In this document: positions 3,626-44,791 of the stretch, piece after piece
Layout of the letters: each line of letters begins with the position of its first letter
Position numbering within the stretch: position 1 is the stretch's first letter
IMG/VR virus record: IMGVR_UViG_3300011980_000002
Coordinates: 96,001 to 160,000 of that record
Direction: 5' to 3' (one strand)
Length of the DNA: 64,000 nucleotides
Origin: a virus
The notes under the pieces: model-generated
What the model saw: the letters and a program-made list of their open reading frames with translations, nothing else
Told to the model about the DNA's origin: nothing
The model's database searches: none
Position numbers and translations under genes: made by a program

Positions 3626-3639
3626 AAAAATAATAGGTT

Positions 3640-3681
3640 GTGGATAGTATATGTAATTCAGCTTTTACATATACTATCCAC
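3640..3681. terminator. Bidirectional stem-loop between convergent genes
   Basis: 16-bp perfect inverted repeat, gtggatagtatatgta / tacatatactatccac. Confidence 0.6.
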
Positions 3682-3695
3682 ATTTGCTTTGACTC

Positions 3696-4031
3696 TTACA
3701 TCAAAGCAAATGCTTTACAACCTATTATTCTTCCTTCCTCGTCTCTGACAGGGTCAGAGGTGATGAGTAAATCATCACATCTTCTTCCTTGAGACTTTGC
3801 TGCACTCACTGTGAGTGCAGAGAGGATGTAGAAGGTTCCATCCTCATATGCGGGAAGCCCCATCACTTCCCCGTATGTGTTTCTGGTGAGACGGTATGGG
3901 AAACCGTCTACCTCTACCTCTTCGGTAGACATACTGGCTCTTGCGATTCCCTCTGAAGGGAACTCTGCAAGAACCTGATTGTCCTGGCTGAACAGGACAA
4001 TCTTATGTGGGGTTAAATTAATAACTTTCAT
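3696..4031 (-). CDS. Small hypothetical protein, G+C-rich single-gene cassette
   Basis: 111-aa ORF with AAAGGAG upstream and its own promoter and terminator. Its base composition is visibly far more G+C-rich than the flanks. Confidence 0.8.
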   Translation of the reverse strand: MKVINLTPHKIVLFSQDNQVLAEFPSEGIARASMSTEEVEVDGFPYRLTRNTYGEVMGLPAYEDGTFYILSALTVSAAKSQGRRCDDLLITSDPVRDEEGRIIGCKAFALM

Positions 4032-4044
4032 ATTTTTCTCCTTT

Positions 4045-4096
4045 AATATGTATATTTATTTTACTACAGATAAATAGTATATCATCGTATATAGAT
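4045..4096 (-). promoter_or_regulatory. Cassette promoter (CCGTATTT-N16-TATACTATTTATCTGTAGTAA)
   Basis: The reverse complement reads ccgtattt-16 nt-tatactatttatctgtagtaaaataaata. The same bipartite motif recurs at six further sites in the window (three with variant upstream boxes); looser variants of the downstream box occur at about eight more. Confidence 0.6.
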
Positions 4097-4181
4097 AAAA
4101 TACGGTATAAATAAATCAATTTAACATAGTAGTAAGTAACTTACCTTACTTATAGATACTTATTTATTGATTAAATGAAGA

Positions 4182-4264
4182 ATATAGAGTATGTGGAATT
4201 AATCTTCCCATACTCTATATTTTTTATAAGGATTTCTATGTAACTTATGATAAATCCTTATTTT
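4182..4264 (+). terminator. Two tandem plus-strand stem-loops with T-runs
   Basis: atatagagtatg / catactctatat followed by ttttt, then ataaggattt / aaatccttat followed by tttt. Confidence 0.5.
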
Positions 4265-4318
4265 CTCATCAAAACAAGTATATAATCAAAAATTAAGATA
4301 TAATGAAAGGAGATATAT

Positions 4319-6283
4319 ATGGCACAAACAGTACAAATAGTACCTCGTTATTTGCACTCTCATGTTGAGACAGTCATTAATGATTATACAACATTTGATG
4401 ATACTCCACCAGTGGAAGTCGATGACAGTGTCAAATTTCTAGCCGTATTTATGGGTCCTCAGGGTATTGATAATACTTTGGTTAAAGTAAAAAATACTAA
4501 GGATTTTGAAACAATATTTGGTAGATCAAATTATGCTTTATATGGTCAGCCTATGATGATGGCGGAAGCGGAACTTAGAAGTGGAGAAGCAAGTGTATGG
4601 TGTATGAGAATTATGCCAGATGATGCTAAATTTGCTAACTCAGTTCTTTCTGTTTATTATAAACCTGATGTTGCTAAGAAGAAATTCCGTATTAAGTTTA
4701 AGGCTAAGGCTCTTATTAATGCATCTGCTGTTACATCTAAGACAGACTTACTTGCTAAAGGTCAAACTTTAGATGGTACTCCTGGTGGTGATGGATTATA
4801 CAAAGATGCTGATGGTTATATCCAGCTTCCTCTAATTACATTTAGAGCTATGGGTAGAGGAGCTTATGCTAATAACTACAGATGGAGAATGGCTCGTAAT
4901 AAGGACTGTGAGAATGATTATAATGTTAAGATGTATTCATTCGAAGCCCTTAGTGCTACTAATGGAATATCCACAATAGCAACTTATAGAGGAACAGTTG
5001 TTGATTCAGAGAAGTTTAATAGATCTACACTTATCAATGATATCGTAGATGATTCAGAAACCGGAATAGCTCCTATAGATATTCAGGCTTATGAGAACAA
5101 TTATCAACTTCTTTATGAAGCTTATGTTAAGTTCTTAAAGGATGTTGAAACAGCTACTACTCCTGGAACAGTTAAGCATGTTCCTACTATAGATGAATTT
5201 GACCCATTCTTTGCTTATGGAATGGCTAATAATATCAAAGATGAATTTATATACTTCACAAAGGTTAAGAGTCCTGGTGTTGAATCACAAGCCGGATACG
5301 ATGCTGATAATTATACAGAGACTAATGACATTATCCAAGTAGATAATGTTGAAGGAACTTTACTTGCAGGTGGTTCAGATGGAGCTTTTGCTAATGCTGA
5401 TGCTAATGCAAGAGACCAGGCTATTGCTGCTACATATATTAAAGCTTTTAATGGTTCATTAGACCCAATTATATTAGCTAATAAGAGAGTTCCGGTTGAT
5501 GCTATATTTGATGCTAACTATCCATATGAAGTAAAGAAAGAACTTGCAGCTTTATCACTTGCAAGAAATGATTGTATGTGCTACATTGACTGTGGACTTG
5601 TAGAGTCTTTCTCTTCTGGTAATCAGATGAAGTTGATTGAGAACTATGGTGTATTTAATACTAGAGGAATTTCAAAGAATCCTCAGTGGTATACAATCAA
5701 GGATCCAATTACAAGAAAGAGAGTTCCGGTTACTATTACATATTTCTTTGCAGAAAACTATGCATCTCATGTAAGAGATAATGGATTCCATATTCCATTT
5801 ACTAATGTATATGCACAGCTTAGTGGACATATTAAGAATTCACTTCAGCCTGCTGTTAATGAGCATGAGTCATCTCTTAAGGAGTGGTTATACACTAATA
5901 GATTCAACTACTTTGAAGCAGTTGGTGAAAATGTATTCAGAAGAGCTTCACAGAATACTTCTCAGATAGTTAATAGTGATCTTCTTGAAGAGAATAACAT
6001 GACTACTCTCTTTAGAATTAAGCATATACTTGAAACAGATGCTAAGGAGAGATTATATAACTTTGCAGAAGCTGATGATAGAAATCTCTTTACTGCTTAT
6101 GAGACAGCTAAGTTCTCTTCATGGATTGGTCGTATGTTACAGTCATTTACTATAGATTTCCAGATGAATGAATTTGAAGCTGAAAGGTCAATTCTTCACT
6201 GCTATGTAACTGTACAGTTCAAGACCCTTAACAAGAGAACTATAATCGAAATTGATGTTAATAAACGCGACTTCGGTGCATAA
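4319..6283 (+). CDS. Tail sheath protein
   Basis: 654 aa with a strong RBS. It contains LLAGGSDG followed by a conserved-looking C-terminal region typical of myovirus sheath proteins, and a tube-sized ORF follows. Confidence 0.65.
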   Translation: MAQTVQIVPRYLHSHVETVINDYTTFDDTPPVEVDDSVKFLAVFMGPQGIDNTLVKVKNTKDFETIFGRSNYALYGQPMMMAEAELRSGEASVWCMRIMPDDAKFANSVLSVYYKPDVAKKKFRIKFKAKALINASAVTSKTDLLAKGQTLDGTPGGDGLYKDADGYIQLPLITFRAMGRGAYANNYRWRMARNKDCENDYNVKMYSFEALSATNGISTIATYRGTVVDSEKFNRSTLINDIVDDSETGIAPIDIQAYENNYQLLYEAYVKFLKDVETATTPGTVKHVPTIDEFDPFFAYGMANNIKDEFIYFTKVKSPGVESQAGYDADNYTETNDIIQVDNVEGTLLAGGSDGAFANADANARDQAIAATYIKAFNGSLDPIILANKRVPVDAIFDANYPYEVKKELAALSLARNDCMCYIDCGLVESFSSGNQMKLIENYGVFNTRGISKNPQWYTIKDPITRKRVPVTITYFFAENYASHVRDNGFHIPFTNVYAQLSGHIKNSLQPAVNEHESSLKEWLYTNRFNYFEAVGENVFRRASQNTSQIVNSDLLEENNMTTLFRIKHILETDAKERLYNFAEADDRNLFTAYETAKFSSWIGRMLQSFTIDFQMNEFEAERSILHCYVTVQFKTLNKRTIIEIDVNKRDFGA

Positions 6284-6318
6284 TTAAAAATACTATAGAA
6301 AGGAAATATTAGAAGAAT

Positions 6319-7128
6319 ATGGCACATACTATACAATCCAATATTCATAATCATACATTTGATCAGTTGGATAAATATGCATTATTCCTAAGTGGTTTAA
6401 ATGTAACCCATGATGTTCTTCAGTCTTACGACCCACTTAAAACTGGTTGGGGAAGAATCTTCATGGTAAGAAAACCTCTTATGGTATGGAATTTGCTACC
6501 AGGTAAGTTAAAGAAGTTTAAACATATATTAGAGTTTGCAAATACAGGTGTTTCCGGTCTTAGTGATATGACAGTTAACTTTGCTAATATTAGTGGTGGT
6601 TATGCTGGTAGATCATTTGAAGTACCGACAGTTGTAGATGATAGTACAAACTCTTTTACTATAAAGACATATGAGTTTTCAGGTTCACCGATGAGAGAGA
6701 TAATCCATTTCTGGATTAATGGTGTTACTGATGTTCAGACAACATTCTCTCATTATTATAATCAAGCAGGTTTGGAAGTTCAGCAGGCAAATCATACTGC
6801 TGAGTTTATTTATGTTGCTACAGACCAGACTGGTAAGAATATAGAGTATGCTTGTATGTTTGCTAACTGCTTCCCTAAGTCAATAAACGTTGACAGTTAC
6901 AACTATGAAGCATCACAACATGATACAGTTCCACTTGATATAGAATTTTCATGTACTAAGTATGAGTCTCCGCAGATAAATGCTAAGGCTATGGAACTTT
7001 TACAGAAGTATACAATACTTACTAACTCACTTAACTTCCACTCCGGTATTACAAGTTCTGTTATTAATCAGAACGGTACTTCTAAGAAGACATACAATAT
7101 TCAGACTGGTATGTTGGAAGAAAGATAA
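6319..7128 (+). CDS. Putative tail tube protein
   Basis: 269-aa ORF immediately downstream of the sheath gene, with a GAAAGGA RBS. The call rests on position only. Confidence 0.45.
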   Translation: MAHTIQSNIHNHTFDQLDKYALFLSGLNVTHDVLQSYDPLKTGWGRIFMVRKPLMVWNLLPGKLKKFKHILEFANTGVSGLSDMTVNFANISGGYAGRSFEVPTVVDDSTNSFTIKTYEFSGSPMREIIHFWINGVTDVQTTFSHYYNQAGLEVQQANHTAEFIYVATDQTGKNIEYACMFANCFPKSINVDSYNYEASQHDTVPLDIEFSCTKYESPQINAKAMELLQKYTILTNSLNFHSGITSSVINQNGTSKKTYNIQTGMLEER

Positions 7129-7218
7129 GCTGAATATATTAAACACTTGAGGCTACGCAAGTTTAAAGACTCTTACGAAGAGATGAGATTATGTATTTAA
7201 ATAACATAATCAGTAGCA
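7119..7218 (+). mobile_element. Orphan right-end (omega-RNA-like) remnant of the TnpB element, no tnpB ORF
   Basis: 7141-7218 is near-identical to the tail after tnpB at 30619-30695 (cttgaggctacgcaag...ctcttacgaagag...gattatgtatttaaat(a)acataatcagtagca). Weaker similarity (aaagataag) extends back to about 7119. Confidence 0.8.
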
Positions 7219-7284
7219 AGAGAGATAAGTTACTCTAAATTAATTAGTGTTAATAAATAATATAATAAAATCCTTAAAATTATT

Positions 7285-13728: not shown

Positions 13729-13771
13729 TTCGTATTTTAAGTATTATTAAATATATACTATTTATGTGTAA
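13729..13771 (+). promoter_or_regulatory. Cassette promoter
   Basis: tcgtatttt-N16-tatactatttatgtgtaaaataaat. Confidence 0.6.
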
Positions 13772-13786
13772 AATAAATATATTTAA

Positions 13787-13815
13787 GGGTGGAGATAATA
13801 TCAAGAGCCCAGGAG
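13787..13815 (+). promoter_or_regulatory. Conserved 5' leader element, copy 1 of 3
   Basis: gggtggagataatatcaagagcccaggag. Near-identical copies occur at 50269-50298 and on the complement of 28115-28145. Confidence 0.7.
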
Positions 13816-13820
13816 TTAAT

Positions 13821-14075
13821 ATGAGAAAGAAATTCGATTACACAGAAACACTTAATTCAGCTATGGAAGTTGTGTCTGCTCCACACAACAACTTTAGCAG
13901 ACCGACCCTGATGAAAATCGCAGCTCAGCTCGAAGCCGCGAAGTCAGGGTTAGAGAGAGGTGAGGAGTGGTACCTCTCTAAATTCAAGGACACTCCACCA
14001 TACGTTGAGAAGGACTTAGCTGAAGCTGAGTTCCTTCTTGACAATATTGAGGCTAGGTTAGAGTGCGTTCTCTAA
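13821..14075 (+). CDS. Small hypothetical protein, G+C-rich cassette gene
   Basis: I prefer the ATG at 13821 (GGAG 6 nt upstream) over the track start at 13764, which lies inside the promoter. 84 aa. Confidence 0.7.
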   Translation: MRKKFDYTETLNSAMEVVSAPHNNFSRPTLMKIAAQLEAAKSGLERGEEWYLSKFKDTPPYVEKDLAEAEFLLDNIEARLECVL

Positions 14076-23969: not shown

Positions 23970-24016
23970 AATAATAAGATATACTAGGAATATTAAACCT
24001 AGTATATCTTATTATT
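23970..24016. terminator. Bidirectional stem-loop between convergent genes
   Basis: aataataagatatactagg / cctagtatatcttattatt. Confidence 0.65.
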
Positions 24017-24027
24017 TATATTACAAC

Positions 24028-25293
24028 CTATACCAATTTTGGATCTGTTAATCTGTCATTTGTTATGGTAAATTTATATACTTTACCATTTGTTAATCCG
24101 AGCATATATATATTACATACATCAGATTTGACCTTGATAAATCTATATAAATCTGGTTCTACTTTACCAAATGAATATTCAATATCGTCAGGTACATCGA
24201 TAAATAATGATACTATATTAGACTTATTCTTAATGCAAATAACATCTATACCAAGGGTTTCTTTGATTATATATTTATTATAATTATTTGGATTTGTGAA
24301 ATCTTCTACACTATCACCTATCGCAACAGTTTTTATTTCCATTTTATCAATCATGATTGGAAGAATTTCTACTATATCACTAATATCAGCCGTGGTAGTT
24401 ATTTCATTATCTTCATATTTATAGATATAGATTATATTAGTTAAATCTACATTATAAGTATTATCAGATTTAATAGGTCTACTATAAACTACAGCATCAT
24501 CTACTGATTTTATATCATATGATTTCTTTAATTCACTTGGATTTACAAATAGTATATCCTTAAGGTTATCAGCCCAAGCTTCTATATAAGTTATCGGAGA
24601 AGCTACTTTATTGGTTATATAGTTAAATAACTTATCTTTATAATCGTTATCATCATTATCCCATATATCGTCTGTTATAGGATCGTAGTTATCTGATATC
24701 TTATCGTTGGACATATTTGATAAAATATCTATATGACTCTTTATTCTAAACTTATACGGAAGTATTAAGTATATAAGAAGATTTCTTAAATACTCAGATA
24801 CTTTATCCTGATACCCTGTATCATTTATATACCCCAGTATTACTGGTAATGACTTACTTAGTACATTAGATATACTTACTACAGAAGACATATTCATATT
24901 CTCTATAGCTTTAACCGCTTCAACTAAATCATCATAGTCAATTACATCATAATTAATATAATCTGTAATTAACATATTGACACCATGTTTACATAATGAC
25001 TTAGGTAAATTCTCATACCTAATTATATTATTCCATATCTCTCTTCTGTGAGAATTATCATTATACTTAGCAACTATTTCCAATATAGTAGTTTTGAGAT
25101 TACTGAGTCTCTTAGTGCTACTATTTTGAATATAGGAAGTTTTAGCAGTTTCAATAATCTTATTAGCCAGACTTTTATTTTCTCCTTGGAATGATAATAA
25201 TCCAGACCCATCTAATACTACCTCATATGCTAAAGCAGCCATCTCCGGTCTCTTTAATAAGATGTCATAAGAGTTATTTTTTGTTGTTTCCAT
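24028..25293 (-). CDS. Hypothetical protein
   Basis: Long ORF. I prefer the ATG at 25293, because the track GTG at 25302 lies inside the IS right end. No canonical RBS remains upstream. Confidence 0.6.
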   Translation of the reverse strand: METTKNNSYDILLKRPEMAALAYEVVLDGSGLLSFQGENKSLANKIIETAKTSYIQNSSTKRLSNLKTTILEIVAKYNDNSHRREIWNNIIRYENLPKSLCKHGVNMLITDYINYDVIDYDDLVEAVKAIENMNMSSVVSISNVLSKSLPVILGYINDTGYQDKVSEYLRNLLIYLILPYKFRIKSHIDILSNMSNDKISDNYDPITDDIWDNDDNDYKDKLFNYITNKVASPITYIEAWADNLKDILFVNPSELKKSYDIKSVDDAVVYSRPIKSDNTYNVDLTNIIYIYKYEDNEITTTADISDIVEILPIMIDKMEIKTVAIGDSVEDFTNPNNYNKYIIKETLGIDVICIKNKSNIVSLFIDVPDDIEYSFGKVEPDLYRFIKVKSDVCNIYMLGLTNGKVYKFTITNDRLTDPKLV

Positions 25294-25296
25294 ATT

Positions 25297-26625
25297 TGCC
25301 ACTGATTATTTGCACATAATCTCATCTCTTCGTAAGAGTCTTTAAACTTGCGTAGCCTCAAGCGTTTAATATTACACATCTTCTATCTTTAGCACTATAT
25401 ATGTTAATAGCAGCATTAATATCCCTATCTATTTCATATCCACATGATTTACAAATGAATACTCTATCAGGTAAAGATATATGTTGTTTATTACCACAAC
25501 ATGAACATTTTTTAGTACTTGGATATAGCTTATCTAACAATCTAAGTTTAATATCATATTCTTTACATTTATTAATCATACGAGATTTAAAGTAATAAAA
25601 ATTACTATACATGATTAATTTATGTAAACTATGAGTAGTATTATTACTTATCATATCAGATATATCTAAATCTTCTATTGTAATACAATTAGGCTTGGTT
25701 TTCGCCGTTAATTTATTTATTAATTTCTTAATAAAATCTTCTCTTATATTAATTAACTTATTATTATATCTTTTAATTTTACTAAATAATATTCTTATAC
25801 GAGATGAATCATATGCTTTTCCTTTCATTTTATTTTTATAATTTTCATTTGGAGTACTATGATGTTTATCATAGTACTTATTTAGCAACTTACCATAATT
25901 AGTCTCTACTTTATTACTAATTATAACACTTAACTTATTAATCTTATCTTCGTAATACTTATATTTCTTATAATCTTTATAATGATTAGTTTTATAAACA
26001 GTATTACCATCATAAATAATAGCATAATTCTTTATGCCTAAATCTATACCCAGTTTTGTATCACTTAAATATAATGGTTTATTATCATAATTATAAAATA
26101 ATAATACATAATATTTATTATATTCTTTAATAATTCTACCAGATATAATATCTTCTTCTTTAGGTAACGATTTATGATTAGTAATTCTTACTTTCTTTAA
26201 TAATGGTAATTTAATAATATTCTTATTATTAGTATAATGGAACCCGTCAAGACAAAAGTAATATGACTCTTTATTTAATCTTTTACGAGATTTAAATTTC
26301 GGAAATCCTTTCTTTTTCTTAAAGAATGATTTAAATGATCTTTCTATATTCATTATACTTTCTTTAATAGCTTTACTACTATAATTCTTTATCCATTTAT
26401 AATAATCAATATTATTCTTTAAGTAAGTTATTATCTTATCAAAATCATAAAATGATAAGAATTTACCTTCGTTCTTATAATAGTCTATATTAAGTCTTAT
26501 ATAAGAATTCATAATAAACCTACAACAAGATAAAGTATTATTAATAAGATTTAATTGATACTTATTTGGATATATTCTTAATTTAATAGATTTAATCATT
26601 GTACTTTCACATATTTAACCCCCAA
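25297..26625 (-). mobile_element. IS605-family tnpB-only element, copy A
   Basis: tnpB ORF plus a right-end tail (25297-25367) homologous to 30619-30695 and 7141-7218. The left boundary is approximate, placed at the shared tgaaagtaca upstream of the start codon. Confidence 0.75.
25358..26599 (-). CDS. tnpB: TnpB (OrfB) RNA-guided nuclease family protein
   Basis: 413 aa containing LGIDLG, ITIEDL, CSCCGNKQ...CKSCGYEIDRDINAAINI (a split RuvC triad plus a zinc ribbon). Confidence 0.9.
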   Translation of the reverse strand: MIKSIKLRIYPNKYQLNLINNTLSCCRFIMNSYIRLNIDYYKNEGKFLSFYDFDKIITYLKNNIDYYKWIKNYSSKAIKESIMNIERSFKSFFKKKKGFPKFKSRKRLNKESYYFCLDGFHYTNNKNIIKLPLLKKVRITNHKSLPKEEDIISGRIIKEYNKYYVLLFYNYDNKPLYLSDTKLGIDLGIKNYAIIYDGNTVYKTNHYKDYKKYKYYEDKINKLSVIISNKVETNYGKLLNKYYDKHHSTPNENYKNKMKGKAYDSSRIRILFSKIKRYNNKLINIREDFIKKLINKLTAKTKPNCITIEDLDISDMISNNTTHSLHKLIMYSNFYYFKSRMINKCKEYDIKLRLLDKLYPSTKKCSCCGNKQHISLPDRVFICKSCGYEIDRDINAAINIYSAKDRRCVILNA

Positions 26626-26702
26626 TATACTTTTCTTCAGATAATTCATAAGTATGTTTAATTTCCATATTTCTTTTTCTCCTTTAAAAATAAAATTTAT
26701 TA

Positions 26703-26720
26703 TTACATGATAATATTATA
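26703..26720 (-). promoter_or_regulatory. Promoter variant upstream of a 17-codon ORF and tnpB copy A
   Basis: The reverse complement reads tataatattatcatgtaataataaa and is followed by AAAGGAG. Confidence 0.4.
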
Positions 26721-26770
26721 TAGATAAATTATAAATTTTATTTAATATAGGAGAATATCATCTATATCAT

Positions 26771-27151
26771 TTACTTCTGTAGATAATATAATATTTTAAG
26801 ATAAAAAGTATCATCCATATCATTTACTACCATAGATGATATATTGTCATTATAAATATCATATAAATAAAATGTACATGTTAAATATGATGGTATTTTA
26901 TCACTTAATTCAGATTTCTTTAATAAAATATAATCATTCTTACTACCATCATCTTCTATAGTGGTAACTAAAGTAATATGGGTATTATCTATATCAAAAT
27001 CTTCTATATTATCTACATTAGTTCTTTCTTCAATAACAGAAATATCAAGATTATTTATCATATATGAATTTACACCATCGTTACCAAGTCTATTAAGTAT
27101 TTCGTTGTAATCTAAACTATGTAGTTTATTCATCAATTCATTATAGCACAT
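26771..27151 (-). CDS. Hypothetical protein (island cargo)
   Basis: 126-aa ORF with a GAGGAA RBS. Confidence 0.6.
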   Translation of the reverse strand: MCYNELMNKLHSLDYNEILNRLGNDGVNSYMINNLDISVIEERTNVDNIEDFDIDNTHITLVTTIEDDGSKNDYILLKKSELSDKIPSYLTCTFYLYDIYNDNISSMVVNDMDDTFYLKILYYLQK

Positions 27152-27155
27152 ACTG

Positions 27156-27590
27156 TTAACATTCCTCGCATATTAATTTATTTTCATTATTTAGTTTTGT
27201 TAAATATAAATTCATCGTATCTATATTAATTAAATAAATACTTCTATAATTCTCTAATTGATCTTCATAATTAATTATCATATAATCACCTTTGGGAACT
27301 CCGGCATTATTATTCTTATCTAATGATAATACTACAGTTTCTCCATTATTATCGTTGAGAATAGTAATAGCTTTTATATTCCAAGATTTAATCATTATAA
27401 ATCTGAAATTTGGATCTAAATCAAAGTAATATCTAAACATACTACCTGACCTAGATAATATTTCTAAGACATTATACAATTTCTTTTCTACTAATACTCT
27501 TATCTTATTAACAATTTTTAATACATTACCTTTATTAAGAGAACCAGATATTGCTATCCAATCTCCAAAATCATAAATATTATTCTTCAT
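27156..27590 (-). CDS. Hypothetical protein (island cargo)
   Basis: 144-aa ORF with TATACT and GAAAGGA upstream. Confidence 0.6.
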   Translation of the reverse strand: MKNNIYDFGDWIAISGSLNKGNVLKIVNKIRVLVEKKLYNVLEILSRSGSMFRYYFDLDPNFRFIMIKSWNIKAITILNDNNGETVVLSLDKNNNAGVPKGDYMIINYEDQLENYRSIYLINIDTMNLYLTKLNNENKLICEEC

Positions 27591-27649
27591 TATTGATAAT
27601 TTTTTCTATGTTCCTTTCATTATATTAAGTATAAGTAAGGTATGATAAT

Positions 27650-27698
27650 AAAAAAAAAATAAAGCCAATTGAAATTAATCCATCGGCTTTATTTTTTT
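27650..27698. terminator. Bidirectional terminator (A-run, stem, T-run)
   Basis: aaagcc..ggcttt stem flanked by an A10 run and a T7 run. Confidence 0.55.
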
Positions 27699-27704
27699 AT
27701 TTGA

Positions 27705-28106
27705 TTATAAGCATACCTCTACGATATCATCGTAATCCTCAAGGTTAACAGCTACCAGTTGTCCATTTCCATATAACGGACAACTGAAAGGTGTAACCCA
27801 CAGTACTATTCTTATACAGTCTGGATACATAACAAAACTATTGTTTCCAAGAGAACTGGTCATAAAAATATAGTTTGTAAACTCCATCATTTTATTATTA
27901 ATGGTTTCCGGAATATCTTCATGAGCAATTATCTCTTCGTCAAATTTGCTAAATGATTGTACACTACGGATAAGTTTTTCAACATTATCCGCAAGATTTA
28001 CAGTCATCTCGCAAATTTCATTAGTAGTTACCTCATCTGTTGTTGATACAACTTCTAAATCATGTCCTTTTATATCTACATTATACTTATTCATTTCTTT
28101 TGTCAT
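27705..28106 (-). CDS. Hypothetical protein, G+C-richer cassette gene (island cargo)
   Basis: 133-aa ORF preceded by the conserved leader and a cassette promoter. Confidence 0.7.
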   Translation of the reverse strand: MTKEMNKYNVDIKGHDLEVVSTTDEVTTNEICEMTVNLADNVEKLIRSVQSFSKFDEEIIAHEDIPETINNKMMEFTNYIFMTSSLGNNSFVMYPDCIRIVLWVTPFSCPLYGNGQLVAVNLEDYDDIVEVCL

Positions 28107-28114
28107 TATATCTA

Positions 28115-28145
28115 CTCCTTTGGGCTCTTGATACTATCTCCACCC
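28115..28145 (-). promoter_or_regulatory. Conserved 5' leader element, copy 2 of 3
   Basis: The reverse complement reads gggtggagatagtatcaagagcccaaaggag. Confidence 0.7.
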
Positions 28146-28174
28146 CGCTCATCTGTGAGCATAATATATTTTAT

Positions 28175-28216
28175 TTACAAGTAAATAGTATATATATATG
28201 AATAGAGAAAATACGG
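28175..28216 (-). promoter_or_regulatory. Cassette promoter
   Basis: The reverse complement reads ccgtattt-N16-tatactatttacttgtaaataaaat. Confidence 0.6.
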
Positions 28217-28223
28217 ATAATTA

Positions 28224-28256
28224 ATAAGGTATATTGGATAATCCAATATACCTTAT
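28224..28256. terminator. Stem-loop after the nuclease gene
   Basis: ataaggtatattgga / tccaatataccttat. Confidence 0.6.
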
Positions 28257-28259
28257 ATT

Positions 28260-29054
28260 TTAATATATACTTATTAATTCATTTTCTTTTCCAACTTCAG
28301 TATTATATTTAAGCCTTTCTAAAAATTGGAAAAATCTCTTATACTCTTTATTTACAATTTTTATATAATGAAACGATTTACTACTAACGACTACTTCATC
28401 TTTAAGCTTTTCTTTTACCTTATCTACATCTACTATCTTATGATGAGTATTTGGATTATCCCCACCATCTTTAATTTCAATCTCTAAATTTAATGATGGT
28501 ATATATACATCCGGAAAATAGAAATGTCTCTTATTATCATATACATAATAATATACATGTGGACTTGGAGCCATTATATCGTTATAGTTATAATTCATAA
28601 CATTGTCTAAGAATTTAAGAAAGTCTAATTCATAACTTCCCGTATAACCAACTTCACCTTCTCTATTACTCCAAGTATATTTACCACTTATCTTCCTATT
28701 TGCTAACATTATTTTTTGTTGCTCTGGGTCATTTAATAATGTTATTTTCCCATACTTACCAATCATTCTTTTTTTAAACATTTCTCTATATTGCTCTTTA
28801 CATTTTGGATTATTACAAAATCTATTATACTTACAAGTTTTTTCATTAAATGATGTAGGTTTTTTATCTACGATACATTTACCTTCTTTTTTACCGGTCT
28901 TTAAATAATAATAAAATTGTTTTGGGCTCATATCATTTGGAATCATATCTTCATGCTCAGATTCTAAATGCGCAATATAAGCATCTACATCTCTATGGTA
29001 AGAATCACAGAATTTACATTTTAATCTGGATTGTATTTTGATCTTGTTTGCCAT
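28260..29054 (-). CDS. Putative C2H2 zinc-finger plus PD-(D/E)xK-like nuclease
   Basis: I prefer the ATG at 29054 (GAAAGGA upstream). The N-terminus has CKFCDSYH..HLESEH and the C-terminus has FPDVYIPSLNLEIEIKD, which resembles a D...ExK restriction-fold motif. Confidence 0.45.
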   Translation of the reverse strand: MANKIKIQSRLKCKFCDSYHRDVDAYIAHLESEHEDMIPNDMSPKQFYYYLKTGKKEGKCIVDKKPTSFNEKTCKYNRFCNNPKCKEQYREMFKKRMIGKYGKITLLNDPEQQKIMLANRKISGKYTWSNREGEVGYTGSYELDFLKFLDNVMNYNYNDIMAPSPHVYYYVYDNKRHFYFPDVYIPSLNLEIEIKDGGDNPNTHHKIVDVDKVKEKLKDEVVVSSKSFHYIKIVNKEYKRFFQFLERLKYNTEVGKENELISIY

Positions 29055-29194
29055 TGTAAAAATTATTTTCCTTTCAAAGATTTTTCTTAATATATTCAAG
29101 TATCTGTCAATTAAACCAATGTTTTTTAAAGGTTTATTAAGAAAATTACAATAAATTAAGTATATAGAAATAACTATGGAAAGGAAATTTATTT

Positions 29195-29368
29195 ATGATA
29201 AGAGTATTAATTAAAGCTTTATTAGCAATTATTCATACAGCTCTAATATGTATGGTATTAGGAATATTTTCACTATCAGGAATCCATTACCTGTATGAAT
29301 TTATTAATAAGCACGGTGATAATAAATTAAAAGATTTTTTAGATAATGAAAGTACAAATCTAAAATAA
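29195..29368 (+). CDS. 57-aa predicted membrane protein (below the ORF-track cutoff)
   Basis: ATGGAAAGGA motif 10 nt upstream. Hydrophobic core LLAIIHTALICMVLGIFSLSGI. Its last codons run into the left end of IS copy B. Confidence 0.45.
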   Translation: MIRVLIKALLAIIHTALICMVLGIFSLSGIHYLYEFINKHGDNKLKDFLDNESTNLK

Positions 29369-30695
29369 AGAAAGTATTAGATAGTGATGATTAAATCTGT
29401 TAAATTAAGAATATATCCAAATAAATACCAATTAAATTTTATTAATAATACCCTATCTTGTTGTAGGTATATTAAGAATAATTATATTGCTTATAATATT
29501 AAAGAATATAAAGAAAATGGTAAATTTATTACTGGATATGATTATAGTAAAATAGTAAATAAACTAAAGAAAACTGATGATGAGTTCTCATGGATTTGTA
29601 ATTATAGTAGTAAAGCTATACAGCGTGCTATGGTGGATGTAGAGAAATCATTTAAAGAATTCTTTAAAAAGAATAGAGGATTTCCGAAATTTAAATCTCG
29701 TAAAAGATTAAATAAAGAGTCATATTATTTTACAAAGAATAGTATCCATTATACAGATAATAAGAATATTATTAAATTACCTATATTAAAGAAAATAAGA
29801 ATTACAGATAGTAAATCTTTACCTAATATAAATACTATTATTAGTGGTAGAATTATTAGAGAATATGATAAATACTATGTGTTATTTATTTATAATTTAG
29901 ATAATAAACGCCTATCTCTAAATAATACTAAATTAGGTATAGATTTAGGTGTAAAGAATTATGCTATTATTTATAATGGTAATATTAGTTATAAGATTAC
30001 TCATTATAAAGATTATAAAAGATATAAGTATTACGAAAATAAGATTAATAAGTTAATGAATATAATTAGTAATAAAGTAGAGACTAATTATGGTAAGTTG
30101 TTAAATGAATACTATGATAAGCATCATAGTACTCCTAATGAAGTTTATAAAAATAAAATGAAAGGAGAAAGCTACAATACATCTCGTATAAGAAAATTAT
30201 TTAATAAAATTAAAAGATATAATAATAAATTGAATAATATAAGAGAAGATTTTATTAAGAAATTAATAAATTATTTAACGGCGAAAACCAAGCCTAATTG
30301 TATTACAATAGAAGATTTAGATATATCTGATATGATAAGTATTGATAATAATCATAGTTTACATAAATTAATTATGTATAGTAATTTTTATTACTTTAAA
30401 TCTCATTTAGTTGATAAATGTAAAGAATATGGTATTAAACTTAGATTATTAGATAAATATTATCCAAGTACTAAAAAATGTAGTATATGTGGTAATAAAC
30501 AACATATATCTTTATCTGATAGAATATTCATATGTAAATCATGTGGATATGAAATAGATAGAGATATTAACTCAGCAATTAACATATATAGTGCTAAAGA
30601 TAAGAAATGTGTAATACTAAACGCTTGAGGCTACGCAAGTTAAAAGACTCTTACGAAGAGATGAGATTATGTATTTAAATACATAATCAGTAGCA
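29345..30695 (+). mobile_element. IS605-family tnpB-only element, copy B
   Basis: tnpB plus a 3' tail with hairpins cttg..caag, ctctt-acg-aagag and the 12-bp stem gattatgtattt / aaatacataatc (30665-30688). The left boundary is approximate. Confidence 0.75.
29387..30628 (+). CDS. tnpB: TnpB (OrfB) RNA-guided nuclease family protein
   Basis: 413 aa, about three-quarters identical to copy A. The RuvC D/E/D positions and the CxxC..CxxC zinc ribbon are intact. Confidence 0.9.
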   Translation: MIKSVKLRIYPNKYQLNFINNTLSCCRYIKNNYIAYNIKEYKENGKFITGYDYSKIVNKLKKTDDEFSWICNYSSKAIQRAMVDVEKSFKEFFKKNRGFPKFKSRKRLNKESYYFTKNSIHYTDNKNIIKLPILKKIRITDSKSLPNINTIISGRIIREYDKYYVLFIYNLDNKRLSLNNTKLGIDLGVKNYAIIYNGNISYKITHYKDYKRYKYYENKINKLMNIISNKVETNYGKLLNEYYDKHHSTPNEVYKNKMKGESYNTSRIRKLFNKIKRYNNKLNNIREDFIKKLINYLTAKTKPNCITIEDLDISDMISIDNNHSLHKLIMYSNFYYFKSHLVDKCKEYGIKLRLLDKYYPSTKKCSICGNKQHISLSDRIFICKSCGYEIDRDINSAINIYSAKDKKCVILNA

Positions 30696-30716
30696 TAATT
30701 TAGAGGACTAGAAATT

Positions 30717-31109
30717 ATGGCTATTACAAAAATGAAAATGTCTCAGCATTATGTAGGTACAACTTCCAGAGGAATGACTATGGTAAGTGAGAAAGGTTGT
30801 AAACCTGGTGGTACTATGCAAGTCTATGTTCCTGAACTTATGCCAGGTATAGAATTTGCTGCACCAGTACTTAGACTTACCATTACCAAAGGAGAAACTA
30901 TATTCGTTAATGCTGATGAATGTAAAATAACAACACCACCTTCAGTTAGGTCAAGAAACTATATAGAACCTAAGATGGAGAATAATGCTTCTTGGAATAA
31001 TATCGTAGAAGACCCTGATAAGACTAATATACCAAGAGGTACTAATGTAACTGTAAACTTTGTAGGAGAGAATATTTATAATCCTACATTCAATACTAAT
31101 CAAACTTAA
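30717..31109 (+). CDS. Hypothetical protein (possibly structural)
   Basis: 130-aa ORF with an AGAGGA RBS. Confidence 0.6.
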   Translation: MAITKMKMSQHYVGTTSRGMTMVSEKGCKPGGTMQVYVPELMPGIEFAAPVLRLTITKGETIFVNADECKITTPPSVRSRNYIEPKMENNASWNNIVEDPDKTNIPRGTNVTVNFVGENIYNPTFNTNQT

Positions 31110-31129
31110 GAAAGTGAGGTATTTAAGTT

Positions 31130-31531
31130 ATGCAAATACCTGCTACAATTACTGAGCTAATTAGATGGGGTGAAACTGAAGAAGTATCTTATAGAAATCT
31201 TCATACAGAATTAATCGTTACTAATGAGCAAACTGACCATAATATAAAAATTCCATTAAATGATTATTTAGGAGACTATCGTTTCTTTATGAATAAGATT
31301 ATAATGGAAGTAGAAATGAATGATGATGAGATGGTTGTATATAAATGCAATCCTAAAGCATTATCATTAAAATTGTATGGAACTACAGAATATTGGTATG
31401 AGTTATTGGTACTTAATAACTGTATATCCAAATTAGACTTTGTGGAAAAGAAAGTTAAAGTATTTTTACCTAATAAGATTAAAGGATTTACCAATGAGGT
31501 AATGATATTAGAAAAGCTCCTTTCTAAGTAG
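31130..31531 (+). CDS. Hypothetical protein
   Basis: 133-aa ORF with a GAAAGTGAGG RBS. Confidence 0.6.
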   Translation: MQIPATITELIRWGETEEVSYRNLHTELIVTNEQTDHNIKIPLNDYLGDYRFFMNKIIMEVEMNDDEMVVYKCNPKALSLKLYGTTEYWYELLVLNNCISKLDFVEKKVKVFLPNKIKGFTNEVMILEKLLSK

Positions 31532-31597
31532 TAAATATGGGAAATTTATATACTATTAATTTAGGTATATTAAATATGGAAAGGAAAGAAGAAATAT

Positions 31598-33718
31598 ATG
31601 AAAAAAATTAAAGAGTTAAATAATATTAATGATACTTCATCATTCTTAGAAAAACTTCATACTTATCTTATTGGTAATAAGATATCTATAGATGATGTAT
31701 TAGAAGTTTTCCATAAGAGAATAGTACCATTAATAAGTTATTATATTTCCAAAGGTTCTAGTCAACCTTTGGAAAATTTTAACGACGAAGAAAGACAGAA
31801 TATATTTATGATAATAGAGATTTTACAATTTATCTATAATAATTCTGGTAAAGATACTGGAGTATCAGATATCGACTTTGATAACTTGTACGAGTTATAT
31901 CTATTATTTGGGAATGATGATATTATTGGTTCATCATTAAATACTAAAGTAAATATAGATAATCATAAATATCCATCATTAAGAGGTACATTAGATAAAA
32001 TCCATTATCTATCAGATAAGGATTTAAGAACTAACCCCTCTAGGAAATATCTATCATCATGGATTAATAAATGTGAAAAACTCTATTATGAAAAAACTGG
32101 TAAGAAAATAGACTTATCTAATATAGATATTATCATATTTCCTAAATATGATGGAGTATCTTGTATATTTGAATATGATGATAATGGGAATTTAGTAAAA
32201 GCTTTAACAAGAGGAAATGTACTTACTAATGAAGCTCAAAATATTACCCATATATTTAAAGATACTGAGATGAATCATTGTAATTATGGATTTGCTACAG
32301 GAGTTAAAACTGAGGTAGTAATTACTAATGAGAATTATCTTAATAATAATCATGGTAATTATAAAAATCCTAGGTCTATGGTATCCGGAATACTAAATTC
32401 AGATGATAATGAATTTAGTGATTTATTAACTGTAGTTAAATTAAGATATATGGATAAAGAAGATACATTAGAGCATTTAGATAAAGATGTGTTTAATTAT
32501 CCATATATAAGATGTAAGATTAGTGAAACTAATACCATTAGGGGTTTTGCTAATGATAATAAAACTGTTAATGGAATTAATTGTGATGGTGTAGTTATAA
32601 GAATAGATGATGATGCTATTTGTAGAGTCTTAGGAAGAGATAATAACAAGAATAATTATGAAGTTGCTTATAAGTATACTGAAGAAGTTGCATTAACCAA
32701 AATCAATGATATCACATTCCAATTAGGAAATAATGGATATATCACACCAATAGCTCGAATAGACCCTGTTATTTTAAAACAGACACAAATTACTAATGTA
32801 AGCCTAGGAAGTATCAACAGATTTCTTGACTTAAATTTAGGAAAAGGTGATACTGTTAAGATACTATATGATATAGTACCATACTTAATATTCGATAAGG
32901 ATTGTAAGCATAAAAGTAAATCTAAGAAATTTGATATGATTTATAAATGTCCTTATTGTAATACTATGTTGGATTTAAATGATGATGGTCTTCCATGCAA
33001 ATGTAATAATATACATTGTGAGTGGAAGAAGAAAGGAAGAATTCTTAATTATGTAATTAAGATGGGAATTCCTAATATTGGTGAGAAAACTATAGATAGA
33101 TTATTTAGTAATAATATAGTAACTTCCATAGAAGATTTATATTTATTATATAATAAGAAATCTGATATATTAAAACTACAAGGGTTTGGAGAAAAAGGTG
33201 TTACTAGATTAACTGAGTCTATTAATAGTATAAAAACTATAGAAGACTACAAATTACTAAGTTCCTTAGGTATTGATAGTATTGGTATAGAAAGCTTTAG
33301 GAATATATGCAAAGAATATACTATTAAAGATTTATTATCTATCATGGCTAATAGAGATTATGAGTCATTAATGAAAATAGCAGGTATTAAAGAAAAGAAA
33401 GCTATTAAAGTTATTGAAGGATTATTAGCTATAAAGAATACCTTACTATCAATATCTAAATATCTCAACATAATACATCCAACTTCATTTGATGAGAAAT
33501 TCTCTGTAGCATTTACTAAAGTAAGAGATGCTAATATAGAGAAAGAAATTATTAAATTAGGTGGAAGTATACATGATACTATTAAGAAGAATACTACATA
33601 TTTAGTAGTACCTGATAAAAATACTAATAGTAGTAAAGTAGAAAAAGCTATTGAATATGGTACAAGAATAGTACCGATAAATTTAATCATTGGTACTATA
33701 GAAAGGGATTTTAGTTAA
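31598..33718 (+). CDS. ligA: NAD-dependent DNA ligase (LigA family)
   Basis: Contains the adenylation KxDG motif (FPKYDGVS), a four-Cys zinc finger (CPYCN...CKCNNIHC), helix-hairpin-helix-like repeats, and a C-terminal BRCT-like segment (FAFTKVRD...GGSI...YLVV). Confidence 0.85.
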
Positions 33719-42808: not shown

Positions 42809-44791
42809 ATGAAACTAAATTTAGATTCTTATGAAATGACTCATAAAGATATTAAGTTTAATAATAAATTTATTAATAGGGAACTGTCTTGGTTAGATTT
42901 TAATTATAGGGTACTGGATTGTGTAAACAATCCAAGTATCCCTATTAATGAAAGACTTAATTTTTTAGGTATAACAACTTCTAACCTGGACGAGTTCTTA
43001 TCAGTAAGATTTTCTTATGCTTATTATAACAAAGATAAAGAACCTTATAAAGATATTCTAAAGTCTATATATAAATTCTTAAATAACCAAATCAAATCTT
43101 ATAATAATCTCCAATTAGATTTAAAGAAAGAAGATATTTCTATATCTAAAGTATCTAAGCTAGATAAGAAAGAATTAAAGAAATTAAATAATATTTTCAA
43201 TCTTTCTATCTTCCCGTTATTATCTCCGACAAATATCAAATCTAATAATGATATTCCTAATATGAATAATGGGGATTTATGTGTGGGATGTCTATCTGGA
43301 GATAATGATTTAATCATAATCCCTATACCAAAATCTATAAATTACTTAATTAAAGTAAATAAGAAATATCTACTAATAGAAGATGTAATTCTTTCATTAA
43401 TAGATGATATCTTGATTAATAAGAATATAAAACATAAGTGTGTATTTAGATTAATAAAAGATATGTCATTTACTTTAGACCATGATAATTCTAAATTCAT
43501 TATAGATAGAATGAATGATATAATTTTACAAAGACAATCATCCAAACCTATCTTTTGTGAATTTGAATCTTCTATAGATAGTAATCTTAAAGATTTAATC
43601 ATCGATACATTTGATATTAATAAATCCCATATATTTTACAGTAAACAAATCGTAGATTATAGAAGATTTATGAAAAATAAGTTGTTATCGAGTAACTACT
43701 CGTATAAACCATTTAAATCACATAATCTTAAATTTAACGACTCTAAGTATAGCATTTTCTCTATAATAGATGAAAAGGACATTTTGTTACAACATCCGTA
43801 TGATAGTTATGAATCAGTAGTAAGATTTATCAACCATGCTGCGATTGATAAAGATGTTGTAGCAATTAGACAGACTCTATATAGAGTTTCATCTATAGAT
43901 GGTCCAATAATAAATGGATTATGCAAAGCTGCGAAGAATGGTAAACAAGTTACAGTATTAGTAGAAATAAAAGCTAGATTTGATGAGAAGAATAATATAG
44001 AGATTATAGATAAATTAAAAGAATCAGGATGTAATGTATTATTAGGAAATGAGTATCTTAAAACACATTGTAAGATGTGTTTGGTTATAAGTAAAGATAA
44101 TGATACTTATAAGATATATTCTCATGTGGCTACCGGTAATTATAATGAGAAAACCAGTATGTTATATACAGATATATCATATTTTACAAGTAAACAAAAA
44201 ATAGGTAATGACTTATTGCATATCTTCAATATATTATCTGGAGTATCCAAACCTGATAGTAAATTACAAAAGATATCATATTCTCCAGTTACTTTAAGAA
44301 AAACTATAATAGGTAATATTGATAAATGTATTAAGTTAGCGAAGAAAGATAAAAAGTCTGAGATATTTATTAAAGTTAATTCTATATCTGACAAAATTAT
44401 AGTTAAGAAATTATATGAAGCTGCTGATAGTGGAGTTAATATCTATATCATATGTAGAGGAATATGTTCTATTATCCCTAGGAAAAATCTCTATATAAAA
44501 TCTATAGTAGGTAGATTCTTAGAGCATAGTAGAATATATCATTTTAACTATGATGGAAATAAAGAATATTATATTTCATCAGCAGATTTATTAACTAGAA
44601 ATTTAGATAGAAGAATTGAGATATTATTAAATATCTCTGATAATAAGTGTATTAATAAACTACAAGAGATTATTAAAGTAATGAAGAAAGATGAAGTTAA
44701 TAGTTTCATTATGGATAGTAAAGGTAACTTTAGTAGAGGTAAAGGAAATTATAATTGTCATAACGAATTCATTGGGAATAAGATTAAGTAG
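42809..44791 (+). CDS. ppk1: Polyphosphate kinase 1 (PPK1)
   Basis: Contains FINRELSWLDFNYRVLD...ERLNFLGITTSNLDEFLSVRF (PPK1 N-domain signature), KTHCKMCLV, YSHVATGNYNEKTSMLYTD (phosphohistidine region), and VGRFLEHSRIYHF...YISSADLLTRNLDRRIE. Confidence 0.9.
   Translation: MKLNLDSYEMTHKDIKFNNKFINRELSWLDFNYRVLDCVNNPSIPINERLNFLGITTSNLDEFLSVRFSYAYYNKDKEPYKDILKSIYKFLNNQIKSYNNLQLDLKKEDISISKVSKLDKKELKKLNNIFNLSIFPLLSPTNIKSNNDIPNMNNGDLCVGCLSGDNDLIIIPIPKSINYLIKVNKKYLLIEDVILSLIDDILINKNIKHKCVFRLIKDMSFTLDHDNSKFIIDRMNDIILQRQSSKPIFCEFESSIDSNLKDLIIDTFDINKSHIFYSKQIVDYRRFMKNKLLSSNYSYKPFKSHNLKFNDSKYSIFSIIDEKDILLQHPYDSYESVVRFINHAAIDKDVVAIRQTLYRVSSIDGPIINGLCKAAKNGKQVTVLVEIKARFDEKNNIEIIDKLKESGCNVLLGNEYLKTHCKMCLVISKDNDTYKIYSHVATGNYNEKTSMLYTDISYFTSKQKIGNDLLHIFNILSGVSKPDSKLQKISYSPVTLRKTIIGNIDKCIKLAKKDKKSEIFIKVNSISDKIIVKKLYEAADSGVNIYIICRGICSIIPRKNLYIKSIVGRFLEHSRIYHFNYDGNKEYYISSADLLTRNLDRRIEILLNISDNKCINKLQEIIKVMKKDEVNSFIMDSKGNFSRGKGNYNCHNEFIGNKIK

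Follow-up and report, generated by a model that had tools for sequence, protein, structure and literature searches.

The window analysed here, a 64,000-nt stretch of phage DNA (positions 96,001 to 160,000 of the IMG/VR virus record IMGVR_UViG_3300011980_000002), contains two intact tnpB genes in inverted orientation, each followed by a short structured right end (RE), together with a third copy of the RE that stands without a protein gene. These are three independent insertions of a single IS607 lineage—two consisting of tnpB plus RE, and one of a solo RE—that probably persist and spread by homing. An earlier reading, made from the DNA letters alone (hereafter the sequence-only reading), had viewed the paired genes as a bracketed, possibly invertible cargo unit that could act as an RNA-guided homing or competition module. 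The latter idea stands, in that phage-to-phage homing or competition would be the most plausible way for the copies to persist; the composite, invertible unit does not.

The two genes, tnpB-L (25358-26599, minus strand) and tnpB-R (29387-30628, plus strand; their insertions are termed L and R below), each encode 413 amino acids, as that reading had described, and the proteins are identical at 317 of 413 positions (77%) in a gapless alignment, L being the more diverged copy. The likely start of tnpB-R is the ATG at 29387, with an in-frame GTG at 29384. Three Pfam families of TnpB type (HTH_OrfB_IS605, OrfB_IS605, and Cas12f1-like_TNB) score above the gathering cut-off for TnpB-L and TnpB-R alike, and PHROG 506, annotated 'transposase', is matched at E 9e-82. 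All of the motifs quoted in the sequence-only reading were found: the RuvC triad D186 (GIDLG), E309 (TIEDL), and D393 (DRD) and the zinc-ribbon cysteines C365/C368/C383/C386 are invariant in 30 homologues. The best sequence match of TnpB-R in the Protein Data Bank (PDB) is the IS607-clade TnpB of ISFba1 (8IAZ; E 3e-54, 32% identity), with which the RuvC triad aligns, D393 falling on the mutated catalytic residue D371 (D371A position). The AlphaFold model of TnpB-R (mean predicted confidence, pLDDT, 87.9) has the TnpB fold and again selects 8IAZ as the top Foldseek match (E 2.6e-27, TM 0.74/0.79), followed by 8H1J and 8EXA (both ISDra2 TnpB) and then by Cas12f and Fanzor2. By these profile, residue, and fold comparisons, both proteins are intact TnpBs and putative RNA-guided nucleases.

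Among close tnpB copies, the ratio of non-synonymous to synonymous substitution rates (dN/dS) is 0.15-0.33; it is 0.24-0.42 for L against other copies and 0.42 for L against R, at a synonymous divergence (dS) of ~0.35. Values well below 1 in all pairs indicate purifying selection on tnpB. They bear directly on the possibility, which we consider unlikely though a serious rival, that the copies are passive relics, i.e., decaying remnants of ordinary TnpA-mediated IS607 insertions in which TnpB has no current role and the intact open reading frames (ORFs) reflect recent insertion. Such an account would accommodate the loss of the left end (LE) and tnpA from the window copies, the tnpB frameshifts seen in two relatives (loci L016 and L039; related loci are cited by such labels), and the somewhat relaxed state of L, with its dN/dS of up to 0.42. 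It sits poorly with ratios well below 1 in every pair and with two genes that, at a dS of ~0.35, are full-length and keep every catalytic and zinc residue.

The limits of the insertions were set by comparison with a 210-kb relative, IMGVR_UViG_3300008575_000010 (L001), which is collinear with the window from 14 to 39 kb at ~82-87% nucleotide identity. L001 lacks exactly 29347-30694 and 25298-26661, so that both tnpB sites are precisely empty in a related phage, as the sequence-only reading had proposed to check. The tails end at 30694 (R) and 25298 (L), and homology to the element-free L001 resumes right there; hence the outer coordinates 25297 and 30695, already proposed in that reading, are the true right-end boundaries of the elements. 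The window itself is empty at the site occupied in L020. On its left side, R begins with the last ~40 nt of an IS607-type tnpA frame (29347-29386, plus strand), homologous to the same end of tnpA in L015, L016, and L030 and absent from the empty L001 site; the rest of tnpA and the LE are gone, and an orthologous left junction is present in L037. The left part of insertion L (26600-26661, minus strand), also absent from L001, consists of a 52-nt filler and then TGAAAGTACA, in which a trace of the tnpA 3′ end survives; the LE is missing. The filler was also considered as a remnant of the tnpA 5′ end, MEIKHTYELSEEKYIGG resembling MEKIYSVSEF..., and local alignment against shuffled sequences gave this no support.

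The DNA between the two insertions (26673-29346, minus strand) is a block of four minus-strand genes plus a divergent 57-aa ORF, and it is collinear in the tnpB-free L001, where homologues of all four minus-strand genes retain their order and orientation beside two empty tnpB sites. One of them, a 133-aa gene richer in G+C, is represented by a 138-aa gene with 28% identity. The minus-strand gene block spans 24028-29099, i.e., it runs past the L copy and includes a 424-aa gene beyond it. Since the same genes lie in the same orientation in L001 with both sites empty, the 2.7-kb segment is native phage DNA, neither cargo nor the product of an inversion, and the outward-facing arrangement results from two independent insertions, each in the orientation of its downstream gene.

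This bears on the composite unit, in which two inverted tnpB copies would carry or invert the 2.7-kb segment. L and R are 84.5% identical in DNA (coding sequence plus 44 nt) and form an interrupted inverted repeat of about 1.3 kb, far above chance, whose arms measure 928 nt (88%), 233 nt (76%), and 103 nt (87%). The inverted repeat of the sequence-only reading is thus upheld, whereas the 65-nt identical run given there measures 67 nt (30275-30341 / 25645-25711) and lies around the catalytic Glu. Recombination between such repeats is physically possible, and the 67-nt run would permit it, but neither an inversion isomer nor any sign of inversion was seen. Besides the unchanged segment in a relative without both copies, the independently empty sites, and a minus-strand block that reaches past L to 24028, neither copy has an LE, no transposase was found (tblastn for serine TnpA), the copies are too diverged for a recent duplication, and no other contig with both was found; the composite unit is accordingly very improbable. 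The codons of the 67-nt run are 97% identical among all close copies, but not between clades, and the run may have arisen by gene conversion among the copies or may be a functional element inside the gene.

The family to which these elements belong is apparent from their relatives. There, the full element consists of an LE, tnpA encoding a serine transposase of MerR-resolvase type, tnpB, and a structured RE of ~66 nt, with the tnpA stop codon overlapping the tnpB start by 8 nt. The elements are therefore assigned to the IS607 family, not to IS200/IS605, because the tnpA of the relatives encodes a serine recombinase and the TnpB that matches best in structure is of IS607 type. The sequence-only reading had stressed the absence of a Y1/HUH TnpA and so implied an IS605-type element; with a serine TnpA as the associated transposase, Y1/HUH is not the relevant type and its absence, for which no separate search of the window was made, is beside the point. 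As is usual for IS607, terminal inverted repeats are lacking between the LE of the relatives (TTAACAGTRATTAG...) and the RE (...ATAATCAGTRGC). Immediately 5′ of the target DNA that adjoins the RE, a G stands at 8 of 8 assessable junctions, with GG at four. This would fit the known preference of IS607 for G/GG targets (PMC10690162, PMC13565253). The RE itself ends in GC rather than GG, and across the eight junctions no constant motif longer than the G at -1 emerged, so that an AGGAG/GAGGG transposon-adjacent motif (TAM) was not confirmed. Similarity between copies begins at, or within 40-60 nt of, the tnpB ATG. The closest annotated phage matches, at 34% identity, are ISCbt4-type elements of the Clostridium phages c-st and D-1873, which adjoin a resolvase-type OrfA.

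The loss of tnpA is not confined to the window. The upstream serine TnpA of IS607 is present in relatives and missing from the window copies: no serine-recombinase TnpA is encoded in the 64 kb (tblastn, best E 1.9), and R keeps only the last ~40 nt of the gene and L a 10-nt trace. The 210-kb relative carries three element copies of its own, all at sites other than those in the window, and its tnpA has a MerR-type helix-turn-helix (HTH) and the active-site motif YTRVS; of its three tnpA genes, one is frameshifted, one has an in-frame internal deletion, and one is removed up to the tnpB ATG. Erosion of tnpA is seen in L015, L016, L020, L025, and L039, and in L038 tnpA is deleted while the LE is kept; the deletions on L020, L025, L038, and L039 are independent. 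An intact TnpA, a 201-aa MerR+Resolvase protein overlapping tnpB, occurs in the more distant homologue L030 (223.7-kb contig), and among the ~14 distinct insertions examined this is the only one. On jumbo-size contigs, TnpA clusters are much rarer than TnpB clusters, and of the 120 TnpA relatives that match best in the protein collection, none comes from a contig as long as the window's own. The window copies are thus non-autonomous derivatives of an IS607-family element and, with the LE and essentially all of tnpA gone, cannot transpose by the canonical route. Repeated erosion of tnpA without erosion of tnpB is an asymmetry that neutral decay, and hence the passive-relic account, does not predict.

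What has been retained along with tnpB is the tail. The sequence-only reading had noted a shared structured tail after each gene, and this is confirmed, at 66 nt past the stop codon in R and 60 nt in L. The conserved block comprises ~66-72 nt, or ~72 nt if counted from the last sense codon (GCU UGA), where it starts. In helix P0, GCUAC directly after the stop codon pairs with GUAGC at the 3′ end; hairpin H2 has 5 bp (CUCUU/AAGAG), and hairpin H3 is variable (6-10 bp). Over ten distinct sequences, 97% of the cells pair, compared with 34-60% in slid controls, and four pairs have changed on both sides, including C-G to U-A in P0 and A-U to G-C and U-A to A-U in H3. RNAalifold in 200-nt windows returns the same helices and none upstream. 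An invariant stem, CUUG/CAAG, which surrounds the 5′ strand of P0 and would thereby form a pseudoknot, was found by sequence inspection only and shows no covariation. With a covariance model built from the tails, the RE of R (30623-30694, plus strand) scores 93 bits, and that of L (25298-25363, minus strand), in which the three helices recur, H3 being shorter and P0 containing a U-G wobble, scores 85 bits. All 13 distinct copies end in ...YAGURRC and their flanks are unrelated from there on, and the RE is conserved across 40% protein divergence. Helices preserved through compensatory changes are a further difficulty for passive relics, and the tail may be an omega-RNA scaffold of unusually compact form.

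The third copy had been missed in the sequence-only reading. An exact copy of the 44-nt tail core lies at 7151-7194 on the plus strand, with none expected by chance, and the covariance model finds exactly three copies in the window, scoring this one at 89.5 bits (7145-7217). The insertion (7129-7247, plus strand; ~118 nt) consists of 14 nt of the tnpB 3′ end and a complete 66-nt RE (together 7137-7217, ~82 nt), followed by 30 nt of foreign flank (7218-7247). It lies directly after the stop codon of a 269-aa gene, next to the tail sheath gene, and is absent from the relatives L002 and L003, in which homology breaks at 7127/7245. A direct repeat, AAGARAGATAAG, matching at 11 of 12 positions, occurs at 7118-7129 and 7218-7229; its RE-side copy runs on into 18 nt that the relatives lack. 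No other solo copy was found by the model in 315 kb of related loci, and eight more distant relatives hold no occupied allele of the solo site.

By analogy with known TnpB systems, we infer that the stretches 3′ of the RE serve as guides. The flanks of all copies diverge right after ...CAGTRGC, and at both full copies the adjacent DNA is the translation-start region of the downstream gene. The putative guide and target of R (30695-30714, plus strand) covers the ribosome-binding region of a 130-aa gene starting at 30717, and that of L (25278-25297, minus strand) spans the start codon (ATG 25293) of the 424-aa gene; neither matches elsewhere in the window. Most insertions lie ≤25 nt upstream of a start codon, just after a purine-rich, Shine-Dalgarno-like sequence—a placement that is to be expected from a G-rich target motif in a genome of 25% G+C.

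The position of the guides lends itself to a further reading, namely that the phage keeps TnpB and its omega RNA as a domesticated weapon that destroys competitors, or as a TldR-like regulator of its own gene starts. Guides over the translation-start regions of conserved phage genes, the very wide distribution of the TnpB family in the phage clade, and a solo RE that could supply an extra guide in trans are all compatible with it, and the killing of competitors by phage homing endonucleases is documented (PMC13565253). We nonetheless consider it quite unlikely, since the intact nuclease residues make a TldR-like repressor role improbable and the insertion positions differ between close relatives, as is typical of selfish elements rather than of a fixed host function. 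Furthermore, insertion L is costly to the phage, since a gene that appears important has been cut off from its Shine-Dalgarno sequence. Homing and the killing of competitors are, moreover, not mutually exclusive.

Insertion L has come between the ATG and the Shine-Dalgarno sequence that belong to the 424-aa gene (25287-25302; 26615-26690, minus strand), which now begins right after the RE with no recognisable ribosome-binding site, and the orphaned Shine-Dalgarno precedes a 17-codon ORF (MEIKHTYELSEEKYIGG). The junctions of L are marked by a perfect 11/11 direct repeat that is present only once in the empty L001 allele. The left-hand copy, AAATATGGAAA (26662-26672, minus strand), is still joined to the orphaned Shine-Dalgarno and opens the 17-codon ORF (26668-26615), and the right-hand copy lies at 25297-25287. 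A 12/12 repeat abuts the tnpB ATG in one of the 210-kb relative's copies (L019/L017), and weaker repeats surround three LE-bearing copies (L016, L038, L039). In a permutation control, six of 15 loci reached a score of ≥9, a level attained by 11% of mismatched pairs. IS607 is said to insert without duplicating its target (PMC10690162, PMC13565253), and the direct repeats at several insertions depart from this; they are more likely to be secondary repair scars than a property of TnpA. Repeats of 11-12 nt, which neither IS607 transposition nor simple deletion produces, also tell against passive relics.

The two sides of the insertions differ in precision. Right ends are always exact, while left ends vary: there may be a complete LE; an LE minus 2, 5, or 25 nt; or a start inside the tnpA 3′ end, at the tnpB ATG, or near the tnpB stop codon. 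At the left junction of L020, 533 nt of the target gene have been removed instead, and ordinary deletion—as the passive-relic account would have it—explains this junction and the left junction of R. Two candidate repeats were discarded. The 4-nt ATAA at R was considered as a target duplication, and the orthologous L037 junction lacks ATAA; matches of 10-11 nt between guide and upstream sequence in L018 and L030 are not at the junction and were judged to be chance.

The homing that we favour would be equivalent to that of a free-standing phage homing endonuclease. Read-through transcription of tnpB would yield an omega RNA whose 3′ scaffold is the RE tail and whose guide is the adjacent ~16-20 nt of phage DNA. 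With this guide, TnpB would cut the empty allele, and repair by recombination from the occupied genome would copy the element in ('non-restorative homing'). An IS607 TnpB is known to cut the empty site and trigger recombination, and transposon retention or homing by this route has been demonstrated experimentally (PMC10690162); TnpB homing into co-infecting phages is listed so far as theoretical (review PMC13565253). The cut would fall on the TAM-distal side, so that the TAM-side end keeps the first target nucleotides and, instead of being trimmed, primes by microhomology inside the donor element. The outcome would be a target repeat, a 5′ truncation, and, at the solo copy, the pairing of recipient and donor alleles. 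The cuts made by ISFba1 TnpB fall at +16 on the non-target strand and at +22 on the target strand (PMC11061315), which fits repeats of ≤16 nt. The 11-12-nt repeats and variable 5′ truncations of L, the solo RE, and one copy in the 210-kb relative could thus be repair scars. The two repeats at the solo copy have one mismatch, and beyond the RE comes foreign flank, an anatomy that fits the expected look of a donor allele beside a recipient allele.

A more specific version of this homing, which we hold only tentatively, is that the IS607 lineage has turned into an RNA-guided homing cassette that spreads without its transposase, leaving 8-12-nt repeats and truncations as scars, and that the solo RE is a guide-only hitch-hiker that uses TnpB in trans. 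If so, an unusually compact omega-RNA scaffold is implied.

Several observations weigh against homing as set out above. The empty L site of L001 differs from the L guide by one synonymous mismatch at position 13, and its empty R site differs from the R guide by a mismatch at position 5 and an indel. The left junction of R is equally explained by a simple deletion between TTTTTAG (flank) and TTTATAG (tnpA), and R has no convincing target repeat. Simple allelic homing would not predict L037, in which the left junction of R is combined with an unrelated right flank. The 52-nt filler of L has no significant match to tnpA, the LE, or any fetched sequence (blastn-short), and the frameshifted tnpB copies of L016 and L039 show that decay occurs too. 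Omega-RNA production, guide length, and the TAM are all deduced from the sequence. No Rfam family, RAGATH-18 included, was matched by the region or, at E values up to 10, by the tail; the comparison with known omega-RNA families that the sequence-only reading had proposed returned chance-level matches only. A scaffold extending into the 3′ coding sequence of tnpB was considered but gained no support, neither excess synonymous conservation nor conserved helices being seen there; lacking such structure, the scaffold would be much shorter than the 184-nt right-end RNA (reRNA) of ISFba1. Identity profiles of the flanks against L001 gave no interpretable co-conversion tracts.

The L037 copy (1-1671) encodes a TnpB 90% identical to that of R, and it has the left flank in common with R and a wholly different gene after the RE. 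With the left side shared and the right side different, the RE marks a mosaic breakpoint between phage genomes.

Exact right ends combined with variable left ends would also be produced by RNA-mediated (retro-)homing, in which the tnpB/omega transcript is reverse-transcribed at the TnpB cut in a target-primed manner, as in long interspersed nuclear elements (LINEs). This predicts precise 3′ ends, variable 5′ truncation, and target-site duplications, and the exact RE end, the variable left ends, the 4-12-nt repeats, and the extreme 5′ truncation of the solo RE conform to it. It is nevertheless hard to credit: no reverse transcriptase was seen, although none was searched for; DNA-templated break repair with microhomology gives the same anatomy without extra components; and several junctions are equally explained by deletions.

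Comparison with described systems places the transposase-free homing proposed here in context. ISCbt4 and CboIStron of Clostridium botulinum phage-plasmids (PMC10690162) resemble the present elements in having a serine TnpA (MerR HTH plus resolvase) upstream of, and overlapping, tnpB (seen here in relatives), no terminal inverted repeats, an RE directly 3′ of tnpB with the flank as guide, and insertion immediately after a G (here at all eight assessable junctions). They differ in that tnpA and the LE are missing from the window copies, the last bases of the RE are ...GUAGC rather than GG, and no group I intron—the hallmark of an IStron—was detected by Rfam within 24000-32000. Several insertions here also carry 8-12-nt target repeats, whereas IS607 is described as free of target-site duplications, and the lineage resides in an uncultivated jumbo-phage clade, its RE core occurring in no bacterial reference genome. 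ISFba1 (PMC11061315), the best sequence and fold match, is only 32% identical to TnpB-R, and its 184-nt reRNA, which includes RAGATH-18, is located entirely downstream of the gene; the tails here extend 60-66 nt past the stop codon and have no RAGATH-18 according to Rfam.

The free-standing homing endonucleases of T4-like phages (SegF, SegB, Mob; PMC13565253) are similar as selfish nuclease genes that lie between conserved phage genes, vary in presence between close relatives, and are proposed to spread by cutting the empty allele of a co-infecting phage, which is then repaired from the occupied genome. Recognition here would be by a flank-read guide RNA rather than by protein, and the elements are transposon-derived, with autonomous relatives remaining. 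In plasmid populations, a TnpA-independent spread of IS605 by TnpB is described as a 'gene drive' (PMC11870625, as summarised in PMC13565253); a TnpB element is there also copied into empty homologous molecules without TnpA, but the system is of the IS605 family, on multicopy plasmids, and experimental, whereas the present case concerns sequence anatomy in phage genomes. IStrons, too, keep TnpB after the loss of TnpA (PMC13565253).

Derivatives of IS200/IS605 and IS607 elements that retain only tnpB or only the guide region, i.e., non-autonomous copies and stand-alone omega-RNA loci, are a familiar class. The window copies share with them the loss of tnpA, the retention of tnpB and RE, and a solo right end without a protein gene; they differ in that the solo copy, at ~82 nt, still holds the entire conserved structured tail. 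In kind, the window elements are ordinary: they are non-autonomous IS607-family TnpB elements, a sort that is known to occur often in phages, whose genomes commonly carry tnpB genes. What is worth keeping is the clade-wide loss of tnpA with retention of tnpB and RE, the compact covarying tail with its solo copy, and the junction repeats; taken together, these allow RNA-guided homing between phages to be tested. The clade provides a natural data set for this, with hundreds of related genomes of 210-230 kb, occupied and empty alleles at the same sites in close relatives, and copies that grade from one intact autonomous element, via many with eroded tnpA, into a remnant that has the guide region alone; how the copying proceeds might be legible in the scars at the junctions. 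For the design of small guide scaffolds, a covarying tail as compact as this one (66 nt) may be of interest as well. For annotation, each of the two 'transposases' is a selfish insertion of its own, and ordinary phage genes lie between them.

The source appears to be an uncultivated jumbo-phage lineage. Searches with TnpB-R returned 2491 homologues at E ≤1e-20, dozens of the closest (55-60% identity) being on contigs of 209-232 kb, and the window's own contig is 223,074 bp; by this distribution, the element lineage is resident in a clade of ~210-230-kb uncultivated jumbo phages. The tail sheath (4319-6283, plus strand) is ~26% identical to the sheaths of phiR1-37, AR9, and PBS1, which are jumbo myoviruses. 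G+C content of the window is ~25%, and no tRNA genes were found in it. Some of the sample labels seem to point to human-microbiome cohorts. A megablast of the 9-kb region against INPHARED gave no match, the RE core occurs in no GTDB representative genome, and a scan of the metagenome collection for this core recovered only the known 210-kb relative and one small contig, with no host.

Further arrangements of the element occur on related contigs. In L038 and L039, it occupies opposite ends of one ~128-nt intergenic region by an SPP1-type holin gene, in opposite orientations, so that each locus is the empty-site control of the other. L018, a 52-kb viral contig, carries two tnpB copies (3001-4310 and 5899-7145) in the same orientation, <3 kb apart, with a 426-aa minus-strand ORF between them.

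Within the native block, the putative 57-aa membrane ORF (29195-29368, plus strand) has had its last native codons replaced by insertion R, and now ends in the tnpA remnant (...DNESTNLK*, compared with ...DKLED* in L001). The nuclease-like gene noted in the sequence-only reading is real: the 279-aa product (28260-29099, minus strand) matches PHROG 15137, 'endonuclease' (E 7e-66), shows a weak match to a PvuRts1I-like N-terminal domain, and has a 264-aa homologue in the tnpB-free relative; it may itself be encoded by a free-standing nuclease gene. A sigma-70 promoter and terminator scan gave fewer promoter-like sites than shuffled sequence. An intergenic repeat of ~110 nt occurs at 28113-28256 and 13748-13825, in L001 (20206-20315), and in L020 (1876-1994), at 77-84% identity; at its end (28224-28256) are a perfect palindrome of 15 bp and a T-rich tail. 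The repeat probably serves as a shared promoter/terminator cassette and may be the 'cassette promoter' that the sequence-only reading had assigned to the G+C-richer gene. Elsewhere in the window, a homologue of polyphosphate kinase, an unusual auxiliary gene for a phage, is encoded at 42809-44791 (plus strand); the gene in L027 (4489-6507) carries PP_kinase domains and has 68% nucleotide identity to 42878-44761 of the window.

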